Assembly (NCBI GenBank): GCA_964016885.1
Contig: OZ024766.1
Span: 11,780,001-11,844,000 of the forward strand
Origin: Eledone cirrhosa
Lineage: Eukaryota
Length of the DNA: 64,000 nt
Direction: 5' to 3'
This document shows, one piece after another, positions 1,467-57,212 of the stretch (position 1 is the stretch's first letter; every line of letters begins with the position of its first letter). A model generated the notes under the pieces. That model did not search any database, was not told the origin of the DNA, and saw only the letters and a list, made by a program, of their open reading frames with translations. The position numbers were made by a program, and so were the translations under genes.

Positions 1467-1660
1467 GGAAAAAGTATGACCCCGACGGCAGAGCTCAAGC
1501 CATTTCGACGGGTATTTCTGAGTCCATAAATAGCCGTCGAAACGGCTTGAGCTCTGCCGTCGGGGTCATACTTTTTCCCTATTACCCACTCTACTACCCT
1601 AAGTATTGAGTACTCTGGTGCGTTATGGTCCATCTGGTTCCTTACCACATTTCCTTCGTT
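1467..1660 (+). mobile_element. (TA)n-embedded hairpin element with hammerhead 3' half and unique tail
   Basis: Palindrome 1467-1578 containing GAAAC-ggc-ttgagctct-gcc-GTC. Homologues at 38701-38903 and 41855-42052; fragments at 32766 and 32978. Confidence 0.75.
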
Positions 1661-2274
1661 ATATATATATATATATATATATATATATATATATATATAG
1701 TAATAATAATAAATTTGAAGACTGTTATTTTAATAAATATATATATATATATATATATATATATATATATATATATATATGTAGAAGTAATATATATATA
1801 TATATATATATATATATATATATATATATATATAAATTCCGACCTCACACACTTACACCTCACCAAGACAATGTCACTGGACCGAGACCTTTGGCGGTAC
1901 TCAGTAATAGAGAAGACCCGCCTTACCTAAGTACAAAGTAAAACCTACTACAGTCAGTAGGCATCTCTAACAAATACACCCCCGTCCCACCACCCCCACC
2001 CCATCCACACCGCCCCTTTCAATGTAAAGTTATGTTGGTGCCACAACATCCAGGCCGAAACAAATGAGATCGTGTAGGTGTCACGACAAAAAACGCACAG
2101 TTCACGCTGTAATGTGGCCGTGTAGGCAACACGGTAAAAACCTCCCAGCCCCACACTGTAAATGTGGTTGGTGTTAGGAAGGGCATCCAGCTGTAGAAAA
2201 CCTGCCAGACAGTCCTATGCGAGCAAGATAACCACTCTTGCCTCAAGTGGGAAAACCCTCCATCCAAACCCATC

Positions 2275-2580
2275 TGGATGCCCTTCCTAACACCAACCTC
2301 ATTTACAGTGACTGCTGGGTGCTTTTTTGCTGTGGCACCTACACGTCCACTTTACAGTGAGTGCTGGGTGCTTTTTTGCCGTGGCACCTCCACGACCACT
2401 TTACAGTGGAATGATAGGGACCCCAGTCCCTATCATCTCATTTCTACAGCTGAGTAAACTGGAGCAATGTGAAATAAAGTGTCTTGCTCAAGGAAACAAC
2501 ACATCACCCGGTCTGAGAATTGAACTCACAACCTTTCAATTGCAAGGTCAATGCTCTAACCACTAAGCCATATGCCTCCA
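2275..2580 (-). mobile_element. SINE family A copy (3'-truncated)
   Basis: Near-identical to the reverse complement of 46561-46815. Confidence 0.8.
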
Positions 2581-3244
2581 TATATATATGGGTGTATGTA
2601 TATATATATATATATATATATATATATATATATATATATATATATATATATATATATATATATATATATATATATATATATATATATATATATATATATA
2701 TATATATGTATATATGTATATATATATATATATATATATATATATATATACACCCATGCTAGCATGGAAAAATGGTCGTTAAACAGCGATGTTGATGTTG
2801 TTATATTTATATATATATATGTGTGTGTGTGTATATATGTATGTATATATATATCTATGGCGAGTAATATATTATTAGCACATACATATGTATATATAAT
2901 ATATATCATCATCATCATCATCATCATTTAACATGCATCTTCCATGCTAGCATGGGTGTATATATATATATATATATATATATATATATATATATATATA
3001 TGTATATATATATATATATATATATAATAGTCCTCTCACACACCAAGGCATGTGTGCGTGCACACATATATATATATGCGAGTGTGTGTGTGTGTATAGC
3101 AAAATAATTATGTAAAACCAGGAGGTTAATTAGTGTAGACAGTTACAATGTTAATTAATGAATCCTAATTAGGGCAAAGAGCTAGCAATATGGCAGATGA
3201 AAGTTACTGTACTGTATACCCAAATATAGGCTTACACCAAAATG

Positions 3245-53264: not shown

Positions 53265-55757
53265 GAGTGAGTCCTCGATATACGGTATATATGCATTCCA
53301 GAAACCCTTACCGTATATCGAATTACCATATAAAGAACCCATTATAACATGAAATAGATAGGGATGCGTTCCAGCACATCGAAAAAGTCATCCCTACAGA
53401 AAAGAAATGTTTTTTTTTTTTTATTTACTGTACCTTAGACATGCCGCGTAGTCCATCACATGATGTGCCCCTTCATTTGTCCCTCCCGAGGCTAAGGGAC
53501 AGTATGGGTTTCAGCCCTTACTCATCTTGGGCTGAGTTGGCAGGAGAGGATGAAGGTGATGTGGGAGGCTCAAAACCAACAAACTCGTTGACTGCAGGGG
53601 ATGTTGAAGGGCCAGCTGTAGCACGGTTGGCCGGTGTGGCTGGCTCGAAGAAAGAGTAGATGGAGGACTGTTTGGCTGTGTTTCTTTTGGCTTCATACAT
53701 TTCTTGGTAAATCTTGACGCTTTTCTCGATGTCTTGAGCCACTTTGCTGCTCCTAGCAGGGTTGGGGTCATGCTCCCTCAGGGTTTCTAAAATTGTTTCG
53801 ATACTCCTGACACATTCTTTTAGAGTTTTTATGTCCAAGCCACGCACATGTTCTTCTTCTTCCTCCTCTTCTTCTTTTTCTGTCTCCTGTATCGCCTTGT
53901 CTAGTTCTATGAGTTCATCATTGGACAGTGGTTCAGCGTGGCTTTCCAAAAGGTCTTTCACATCACCACCATTAACACCATCGAAGCCAGCTCTATGGCA
54001 GAGATTTACAATATCTTTTTTTATCGCACCAATGTCCTCAGCAAAGCCTTGGAAGTCATTCACACATGCTGGCCATAATTTCTTCCAGGCCAAGTTCATG
54101 GTAGACTGCTTCACTTCTTCCCAAGATGCCTTGATGTTGTCTAAGCCGTGCTTGATGTTGTACAATTTCCACCATTCCCTGCTCGTGGGCTTGTCAGGCC
54201 CATCTGTGCCCTTTATCAGCTGCTGCATGGTTCTCCGCTGGTAGCATGCCTTAAATGTTTTGATGACTGTTTGATCCATCAGCTGAATGAGAGCTGTGGT
54301 GTTTGGGGGGAGAAACAAAACCTCAATATATTCTGACCAGTCTTCCATTGCCCGTGGGTGGCTGGGGGCGTTGTCCACTAATAGCAGAAAACGGTTGGCA
54401 ATGTTGTTAGCTAATGCATATTCCTTAAGGGTTGGTGACAGATATGAGGTGAAAAAATCCTGGTGAATTGAAGTGATCAGCCATGCCTTCTTATTAGACT
54501 TCCATATCACTGGTAGGTATTGCTTAAGTAACCCCTTGAATGCTCTTGGAGTTTCAGAATGGTAGATAATGAGTGGCTTTAGCTTTAAATCTCCTTCTGC
54601 ATTCCCTCCAAGTAACAGAGTAACGCGGTCCTTTGAGGCTTTGAACACTTTCACACTTTTCTCCTCCTTGTCAATATAATTATTACTGGTCATCTTTTTC
54701 CAATAAAGTCCTGTTTCATCATAATTAATAACCTGTTTTTTGCTGTACCCCTTCTCTGCACTGCATTTCTCTAACACGGCCTTGAATTTTGTCGGAACTG
54801 GCAGCCTCACCTGTAACATTTATGTTGTGAAGACTCGAACGTCGTTTGAACTTATCAAACCAGCCTTTGCTTGCCTTGAATACAAAGTCCTCCACCCCCA
54901 TTTCAGTCTTGAGCCTGTCAATAATGGACAATGCTTTCTCACTGATTACATTTAAAGACAGAGGCATATTTTGACGATTTTGGTCGTTGATCCAAATTTT
55001 GAGCAACCTTTCCATCCTATCCATAATCAGCTCACCATGTTTGGTCAACAATTTACTCTGTAGAGTCGTAGCATTCTCCCCAGCCTTTTGGACAGCCTCA
55101 CTATTTTTTAAAACAGTCCAGACTGTAGACTGCGCTAGGCCGAAGTTACGACTTATGGCGGACGTACCTTGCCCCTGTTCCTTCCTTTTCAAAATGTCCA
55201 GCTTTATCTCCAAAGTCAGGCTCTTCATCATGTGTTTGGACTTTCCATCTGCATCAGCAATATTTGCAGGACGTTTTGGGGCCATGAGATATGGGGTTAT
55301 AAGATATGCTGTGATAATTATACTCCAAAAACATGCCGTCGGGTTTTCTCTTACTTTGAATGACGTCATAACTCTTAACTGATCACTTCAGTTCGGCAAA
55401 AATTCTCTAACTGAGAGGACACGCTAGTTTGCTGAACTGAAGTGATCAGTTAAGAATTATGACGTCATCGACTGATATCTGAACTCGCTCGTGATTGGCC
55501 AGTTTCTCTGTAAGGTCAGTTAGTACGATAGCAGTAGTAACACAATTTTCCTAGAATTCGAATAGCAGTCAGTTTCCAAAAATTCAAGGGAGAATTTATT
55601 GCTTACTACAGGTGGCACTACGGTACAATATAAACAAAATACGACCAAAAATTCTGGGAATTTTTTTTACCGTAAATAGAATTGATGGTAATAATTACGC
55701 AAAACCGTATCTGGGAATTTACCGGATCAAGGACTACCATATATCGAGGACCCACTG
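53265..55757 (-). mobile_element. Full-length Tigger/pogo-family DNA transposon (2493 bp)
   Basis: ~23-bp TIRs (gagtgagtcctcgatatacggta and rc cagtgggtcctcgatatatggta) with TA on both sides, enclosing a transposase. Confidence 0.93.
53518..55285 (-). pseudogene. Tigger/CENP-B-type DD32D transposase with one frameshift near 54790
   Basis: MAPKRP... HTH domains (KASKGWFDKFKRR, GEAASSD) in one frame. DETGLYWK, DNAPSH, LPPNTT and QLMDQ catalytic domain plus acidic tail in another frame. Confidence 0.9.
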
Positions 55758-55924
55758 TATATATATATATATATATATATATATATATATATATATATAT
55801 GTGTATATATATATGTGTATATATATATATGTGTGTATATATATATATGTATATATATATATGTATATATATATATATATGTATATATATATGTATATAT
55901 GTATATGTATATATATATATATAT

Positions 55925-56250
55925 CATCATCATCATTTTTACGTCCGCTTCTCCCTGCTTGCAAGGGTGGGACGGGAACTGATTCTGGCTTGATTTCTAC
56001 AGCTGGATGCCCTTCCTAACACCAACCTCATTTACAGTGAGTGATGGGTGCTTTTTTGCCGTGGCACCTCCACAACCACTTTGCAGTGGAATGATAGGGA
56101 CCCCAGTCCCTATCATCTCATTTCTACAGCTGAGTAAACTGGAGCAATGTGAAATAAAGTGTCTTGCTCAAGGAAACAACACATCACCCGGTCTGACAAT
56201 TGAACTCACAACCTTTCGAATGCTCTAACCACTAAGCCATGTGCCTCCAT
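55925..56250 (-). mobile_element. SINE family A copy
   Basis: Identity to family A. Confidence 0.85.
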
Positions 56251-57212
56251 ATTATATGTATATGTATGTATATATGTATATGTATATATATAAACCACCT
56301 AAGAGAACATTAGTCTACAACCTCTATTATACCATAAACGTGGTTCTGTCTTTGCGCGTAATTCTTTTACACTGCTCCTATTAATGACGTATTATATTCG
56401 TTTTTTCCCGTTCTTTGCCAGCGAACGTTTCCACGAACCAAAGTATCGTCTTCCTGTCTTCCTCCGGTTGCAACGTTTTTTGAAATATTCACTTCTGCCT
56501 TTACAGATTGACTTTGTTAGTTTCAGAAGATCCCGTTAAGGGTGAAAGCAGAGATTCTTTGCTTAAACTTTAATCTGTTATTTTAATAAATATATATAGT
56601 ATATATATATTAATATATATATATATATATATAGTATATATATATATATATATATATATATATATATATGTATATATATATGTATATATATGTATATATA
56701 TATATGTATACATATGTATATATATATATATATATGTATATATATGTATATATATATATATATATATATGTATATATATGTATATATATATATATATATG
56801 TATATATATGTATATATATATATGTATATATATATATATATGTATATATATGTATATGTATATATATATATATATATGTGTGTATATAGTATATATATAT
56901 ATGTATATATATATATGTATATGTGTGTATATATGTATATATATATATGTATATATATATATGTATATATATGTGTGTATATATGTATATATATATATGT
57001 ATATATATATGTATATATATATGTGTATATATATATGTATATATATATGTGTATATATATATATATATATATATATATGTATATATACGTTATTCCGGGT
57101 TGAATCGGAGGTAACCACAGTAAGTAAGGTACTCAATACATAGCAGAGTATAACAGTTTTAATATAGATGAGATTCTACAGGACTAGAACTGTTTCATTC
57201 ATTTGAAATCAT

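Follow-up and report, generated by a model that had tools for sequence, protein, structure and literature searches.

Penelope-like elements and their tails

Insertions of Penelope-like retrotransposons (PLEs) can carry a one-sided tail that has long been a puzzle, and their inverted arrangement with such a tail is described in PMC8557442 and PMC3846280. Here we analyzed a stretch of 64,000 nucleotides (nt) from Eledone cirrhosa (OZ024766.1:11,780,001-11,844,000; assembly 3.0 Gb), called the window below, which is dense in (TA)n and transposon debris. Truncated PLEs of the Hydra clade in this window carry a recurrent bulged hairpin. We find that this hairpin is a real, conserved cis-element of Hydra-clade PLEs.

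The closest described elements are the C-terminal-endonuclease PLEs of the Hydra clade (Craig et al. 2021, PMC8557442), which have the same protein signatures as the elements studied here, (TA)n targets and a hammerhead ribozyme near the 3' end. As here, their copies also occur as partial tandems and in inverted orientation with a tail on one side. Tails are about 55-140 nt here, compared with 30-40 nt in PMC8557442. The main text of that paper describes no structure in the tail or the 5' untranslated region (UTR): it uses neither 'hairpin' nor 'stem-loop', and the supplement does not use 'hairpin'. The motif is nonetheless present in the consensi of the paper itself.

In PAc, a Poseidon-clade PLE (Frangieh et al. 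2024, PMC11167929), the reverse transcriptase (RT) initiates internally at two sites that bound the tail, and the protein is predicted to be a dimer. PAc resembles the elements described here in these respects, in having both start sites downstream of the hammerhead and in its AT-rich target. It differs in starting inside an AC-rich stem-loop within the open reading frame (ORF). The RNA letters given in its Fig. S1 contain no RCUC..UNGAGY, and the sections of the paper covered here report no duplicated signal. That in vitro work connected two RT start sites with the tail; the same sections name no signal that positions them.

A bulged hairpin recurs in the window and covaries

The motif has the consensus R-CUC-[stem]-UN-GAG-Y and forms a bulged stem-loop whose loop length is free (3-108 nt). 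An original prediction, made from the window itself, had quoted sequences that are present at all nine of their positions; a further copy placed near 38830 lies at 38831-38854 and has a T-T mismatch in the upper stem. The descriptor used there (ACTC, stem of at least 3 bp, TN, GAGT) matches the window 10 times, whereas 200 local Markov shuffles averaged 1.2 matches and never exceeded 5. A covariance model, trained on a set that included several window copies, gives 14 matches at E<=2, with E<0.01 for 12 of these, and adds the copies marked as additional below. Hairpins (hairpin 1 of each element) and hammerheads of the window are as follows, with families denoted by letters.

1588..1611, + strand: hairpin 1, family C; the long insertion end at (TA)n follows 48 nt later, and an inverted twin arm lies upstream
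41980..42003, + strand: hairpin 1, family C, quoted sequence verified and matched by the covariance model
38831..38854, + strand: hairpin 1, family C, upper stem partly decayed, covariance model match
11710..11732, + strand: hairpin 1 of a family A-like copy whose upstream hammerhead core is mutated, covariance model match
43556..43580, + strand: hairpin 1, family B-like, in a short 5'-truncated copy, covariance model match
46178..46197, + strand: hairpin 1, family A, quoted sequence verified
46063..46126, + strand: minimal type I hammerhead, family A, descriptor match with its predicted cleavage site 59 nt before the hairpin
45837..45876, - strand: hammerhead core, family A, on the inverted twin, whose short end comes before the hairpin
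51370..51450, + strand: hairpin 1, family F, 61-nt loop
51159..51309, + strand: hammerhead, family F, 116-nt stem II region, descriptor match
10151..10190, - strand: hairpin 1, family E, quoted sequence verified
10246..10300, - strand: minimal type I hammerhead, family E, descriptor match
47008..47032, - strand: hairpin 1, family B, on the long-end arm of an inverted pair
47124..47170, + strand: hammerhead core, family B, on the inverted twin with the short end
57131..57149, - strand: hairpin 1, family D, which has an intact 712-aa Hydra ORF elsewhere in the genome and a non-canonical second site
57193-57215 (-) and 57221-57243 (+): head-to-head hammerhead cores, family D, short stem II
45093..45118, - strand: additional hairpin 1, family G, covariance model match
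40602..40622, + strand: additional hairpin 1, family H, GCTC/GAGC form, covariance model match
40759..40779, - strand: additional hairpin 1, family H-like, GCTC/GAGC form, covariance model match
31603..31628, + strand: additional hairpin 1, family J, GCTC/GAGC form, covariance model match

In an alignment of 40 sequences, part of which had been chosen for pairing, covariation was 0.537 compared with 0.181 after shuffling, with 63 double-sided changes. RNAalifold recovered the same seven pairs unprompted, four of which change on both sides. Double-sided changes across families and the shuffle tests thus bear out the proposal of a selected, covarying structure, with two amendments. The upper stem covaries as proposed, but the lower stem is not fixed, as its bottom pair covaries too (G-C 25, A-U 11, U-A 2, n=40). 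The 3' bulge is indeed 2 nt long but reads UN rather than TT alone. G-U outnumbers A-C in the hairpin stems (17 vs 5, p=0.017), which points to the sense strand as the folding strand. Comparison with Rfam, which had been suggested as a check, gave 0 matches at the gathering score. At relaxed thresholds there were 734 matches, the best 150 of which were almost all to microRNA models, largely on microsatellites and palindromes, with nothing relevant among them. The hairpin is apparently undescribed hitherto.

The carriers are Hydra-clade PLEs

The hairpins sit in Hydra-clade PLEs that are inserted in (TA)n and reduced to their 3' ends by 5' truncation. These copies are short and often form head-to-head pairs, in which the inverted arm stops just before the hairpin and the forward arm continues some tens of bases beyond it. 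Families were traced through longer copies, leaving aside the window copy at 11710 on its own and the ORFs of families G and J. Families A (46178), B (47008/43556), C (1588/41980/38831), D (57131), E (10151) and F (51370) all lead into a Hydra-clade PLE ORF, and family H and two further families are likewise joined to Hydra-signature ORFs. The motif had been thought to be shared by unrelated families; since every traced listed family leads into a Hydra-clade ORF, we take it instead to be inherited within one clade. Family proteins are 39-51% identical, and the sole blastn match between the non-coding regions of eight families is one 14-mer over the motif itself.

Intact single ORFs of 709-896 aa, found in four families, encode an RT and then, at the C terminus, a GIY-YIG endonuclease, with YRDD and YIG/YVG. 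All four contain RxRW[KR]A (the RWK-type N-terminal motif), DKTxN (DKT), a CxCX5C linker and CxxC..E..N..CxH; the latter two are invariant in a protein alignment. No CCHH was seen in the endonuclease sequences read. The clade assignment uses these protein signatures, as listed in PMC8557442, rather than a tree. A hammerhead near the 3' end and insertion in (TA)n, further marks of the clade, were found as well. Two Hydra fragments matched no Pfam family, a word-indexed search of proteins found no match and the viral contigs searched held no relatives, while a genome-contig search gave one weak match (E 2e-4) that was not used.

Many intact Hydra ORFs (about 700-900 aa) of several families were observed (e.g., L360, L364, L365 and L369), so the clade has probably been active recently in this genome. 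In several copies of family H (L170, L171, L173, L175, L179, L180), the 3' UTR contains a fixed, nested tail end of another Hydra family.

Hammerhead context and genome-wide sampling

The hairpin had been placed 3' of a hammerhead on the same strand. This order holds, but a strict descriptor finds an intact hammerhead in 3/10 of the listed copies (46178, 51370 and 10151). The copy at 57131 has a short-stem-II variant, that at 11710 has a mutated core, and the other listed copies without an intact hammerhead are 5'-truncated. Hammerheads called in this way are predicted ribozymes.

An unbiased sample of 94 loci at round coordinates (940 kb) was searched with a relaxed descriptor, R-CTC-stem-TN-GAG-Y. 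It gave 116 matches, and a microsatellite lies 25-85 nt 3' of 77 of them (background 9.5%). Other bulge sizes and 15 control cores showed 0-27% association with microsatellites, with one set at 36% (9/25). CTGANGA occurs on the same strand upstream of 22 of the 116 matches (background about 5%), compared with downstream of 3. An intact same-strand hammerhead is kept in 12/70 tail-type matches (background 1.9%), and in 9/12 intact-hammerhead cases the hairpin starts 26-70 nt past the cleavage site. Genome-wide, the hammerhead core followed by GAAA and TACTCC at the right spacing occurs 32,987 times, compared with 723 for the reversed pattern. A sequence-only test over loci gave 19/38 families, which is a floor because antisense reads of the same hairpins were mixed in. 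Extrapolation from the 940 kb suggests very roughly 200,000-250,000 tail-type copies in the genome.

We considered whether GAGY of the hairpin could serve as an alternative hammerhead stem III. This was rejected because the commonest form is GAGC, without the U needed before the cleavage site, and because stems III of the examined families differ from ACTC. Two side observations concern the ribozyme. Family C (L116) has a core variant, UUGACAA, and a Neptune-like family (L182/L187) has an apparent UUGAAAA core. In family F, hammerhead stem II (116 nt) and the loops of both hairpins (61 and 106-108 nt) are expanded by long AU-rich insertions, with all closing pairs kept.

Two tandem hairpins mark the insertion ends

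Full-length elements carry two tandem hairpins between the hammerhead and the start codon. The original prediction had overlooked that the motif is one of a pair and that both insertion ends lie just upstream of a hairpin. We mapped 372 microsatellite-flanked ends from 342 loci of nine families; 359 lie at -25..+2 of a hairpin (317 at -14..-4) and 13 lie elsewhere, with the two end windows spanning only about a third of the queried length. The modes are 6-12 nt 5' of hairpin 1 or hairpin 2. Spacing between the hairpins ranges from 67 to 138 nt across the nine families, and the end offsets hold whatever the spacing. As ends fall just 5' of either hairpin, the one-sided PLE tail is the interval between them, with one boundary immediately upstream of hairpin 1 and the other immediately upstream of hairpin 2. 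A correlation of tail length with spacing was dropped as largely arithmetic. A role of the hairpin in RT/endonuclease recognition or 3'-end definition had been suggested; the end map agrees with end definition, and endonuclease recognition finds no support here.

A second hairpin past the long end was predicted in advance for families B, A, F and E, and was found in 4/4. Their read-through copies have GCTC 8-9 nt past the searched word (292, 18, 327 and 56 pattern matches, respectively; 0 for the reversed-pattern control). This GCTC closes into a hairpin in 8/12 (B), 7/12 (A), 12/12 (F) and 5/6 (E) loci, and a Hydra ORF then follows. In a family C read-through copy (L371), hairpin 2 lies six nt past the long end, followed by the start of a Hydra ORF.

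The hairpin pair is conserved in other sources

A search of representative proteins gave 13,906 matches at E<=0.001, the weaker of which are not necessarily Hydra-type, and a metagenome scan gave 79 Hydra-type loci. Upstream of 32 metagenomic ORF starts (redundant loci included), two hairpins were found in 22, one in five and none in five. The two hairpins lie 57-83 nt apart. Metagenomic copies abutting (TA)n end at -5 to -8 of hairpin 1 or at -6 to -10 of hairpin 2, with one end at 0. Immediately 5' of hairpin 1, a TA dinucleotide is present in 16/16 elements, and immediately 5' of hairpin 2 in 12/16.

Anchoring on the hammerhead, with no structure required, revealed NCTC..TNGAG in 28/50 metagenomic groups (null 10.5%); a further 13 end at (TA)n before the motif position and 3 are cut off. 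The first upper pair in the 28 groups is C-G in 12, T-A in 11, A-T in one and G-C in one, and is unpaired in three. None of 20,000 shuffles reached the observed stem pairing. By eye, the published consensi Hydra-2_Amil (coral) and Hydra-2_Ajap (sea cucumber) have the motif at their end, with a single copy in the coral consensus, and Hydra-1_Ajap (sea cucumber) has two copies at its beginning. A conserved, duplicated hairpin thus predicts both insertion ends across many families and distant hosts.

Proposed mechanism and alternative explanations

What the data show is the motif with its covariation and duplication, where it lies in the element, and that the ends map to its two copies. From these we propose that each hairpin copy probably binds the element's RT and directs it to start internally, ~6-12 nt upstream of the hairpin. 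A sense read-through RNA, tandem or circular, would fold both hairpins. The RT-endonuclease would bind the CUC/GAG stem with its UN bulge, and nicked (TA)n target DNA would prime at the UA-rich patch just 5' of the hairpin. Priming at hairpin 2 would give the long end, tail included, and priming at hairpin 1 the short end; use of both sites on opposite target strands would give inverted pairs with a one-sided tail. Hairpin 1 comes after the hammerhead but before the ORF, so long-end copies would require a template that is read-through, tandem or circular. That a Poseidon-clade PLE starts internally at two sites delimiting its tail (PMC11167929) makes internal starts the most likely interpretation. 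The hairpin is then a candidate minimal RNA ligand for a telomerase-related RT, and a marker for annotating Hydra-clade ends.

We speculate further that a dimeric PLE RT-endonuclease, with one subunit per hairpin, might prime both strands of nicked (TA)n from one RNA. This joint use of both sites is a weaker, additional step beyond internal starts, and we hold it only tentatively. If true, it would be a twin-priming code that accounts for both the PLE tail and the inverted insertions, and would provide a portable ~20-nt 'start here' module for a telomerase-related RT.

Several points weigh against internal starts set by the hairpins. Three central pairs of the stem are invariant and say nothing about pairing. 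The upper stem of hairpin 2 is only 1-2 bp in families A, B and E, and the family H copy of this hairpin is degenerate. A canonical second hairpin is missing from family D (a different small hairpin is there), yet 22 ends map to the site. Six of the 50 metagenomic hammerhead groups run long without the motif, although part of these could be hammerhead miscalls. Of the six published consensi inspected by eye, Hydra-1_Amil and Hydra-1_Obim have no clear motif and Hydra-1_Crog has variants only. The end-mapping loci come mostly from targeted searches, and end positions are blurred by a few bases where TA of the element merges with TA of the target. Family C short ends stand outside the pooled count; a separate mapping places them at -9 and -5.

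Alternatively, the hairpins could be RNA-processing signals, in which case a nuclease would cleave the transcript 6-12 nt before each hairpin and the RT would begin at the free 3' ends thus produced. This predicts an identical end map, and the fixed offset would fit a measuring nuclease. We consider it unlikely, as the only PLE tested in vitro, from another clade, starts internally on unprocessed RNA (PMC11167929), and the TA patch at the start sites fits annealing to the target.

A role in the 5' UTR, in translation start, autoregulation or as a duplicated internal promoter element, with ends nearby for some other reason, is suggested by the position of hairpin 2, which in 16 metagenomic elements begins 37-69 nt upstream of the ATG, and by the invariant core letters. 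However, each end class follows its own hairpin though spacing varies two-fold, hairpin 2 is further from the ATG in some families here (about 87 nt in C and about 147 nt in F), and covariation speaks against a plain DNA promoter element. We regard such regulation as improbable.

Slightly less probable still is a structure in single-stranded DNA, acting as a resolution or endonuclease site during second-strand synthesis. This corresponds to an earlier view of the tail: PMC8557442 ascribes it to endonuclease-mediated resolution, and the D. virilis endonuclease needed the tail, as recounted in PMC11167929. The 17:5 ratio of G-U to A-C speaks against antisense cDNA, while sense-strand DNA stays compatible with it.

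Chance hairpins or inert shared ancestry of one repeat can practically be dismissed: the carriers do all come from one clade, but the one shared 14-mer of eight families covers the motif, changes across families are double-sided, and the microsatellite association of the unbiased sample, the hammerhead-anchored test and the end map already contradict it.

Comparison with other RNA structures and ribozyme systems

Stem-loops in the 3' tails of stringent long interspersed nuclear elements (LINEs), such as ZfL2 and UnaL2 (PMC4176376, PMC1636434), are likewise structures of the element RNA, and are recognized by the element's own protein. In UnaL2 an internal loop of the stem-loop is required. By analogy, the PLE hairpins likely work as LINE 3' stem-loops do, as putative RT-recognition elements. 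The LINE structures are single, lie at the RNA 3' terminus and have a specific loop, whereas the PLE hairpin is doubled, has a free loop and has its start site on its 5' side, inside a longer RNA. In the telomerase template boundary element and SL5 of DRT10 (PMC12632851), a stem likewise flanks a short template pairing with a repeat primer, and the RT is related to those of PLEs. These stems are located 5' of the template and terminate copying, whereas the PLE hairpin lies 3' of the proposed start; the comparison is one of description.

Minimal type I hammerheads are known from PLEs (Cervera and De la Pena 2014, PMC4209133) and from non-LTR (long terminal repeat) retrozymes (PMC7229834; bioRxiv 10.64898/2026.07.22.740005), and it is a ribozyme of this kind, including a U3-A8 core variant, that lies upstream of the hairpins. 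Unlike in those hammerhead systems, the hairpins here are separate from the ribozyme, and the carriers are truncated coding elements rather than protein-free tandem retrozymes. A non-LTR retrozyme, that is, a non-coding tandem unit, was rejected as the carrier because read-through copies lead into RT ORFs.

The hairpin motif and its paired end-marker role were not found in the open-access literature searched, a search that left aside figures, Repbase/Dfam entries and most subscription papers. The host clade, hammerhead, tail and internal initiation were already known; the motif and its paired role are apparently new.

Neptune-like elements and other features of the window

A Neptune-like PLE partner, our first guess, was rejected, as there was no enrichment near Neptune-like elements. 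CCHH-type ends gave 7 model matches in 98 kb around 30 GIY-YIG loci (mostly 1.5 kb of flank), compared with about 8 expected from nested copies, and the motif was not found at the Neptune-like ends in L182, L185-L187 and L189. Neptune-like PLEs here (L182, L185, L186, L187, L189 and L031-type) also have short and long 3' ends, and their tails share the word AC(T/C)CGTGT, which is possibly that clade's own start signal.

Four other features of the window were assigned by their presumed resemblance to known families.

15899-16318, + strand: exon that we take to resemble a nuclear-receptor ligand-binding-domain C-terminus
52219-53307, - strand: remnant presumably resembling an RTE-type LINE
53518-55387, - strand: remnant presumably resembling a Tigger/pogo transposase
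61661-62176, + strand: remnant that we take to resemble mariner

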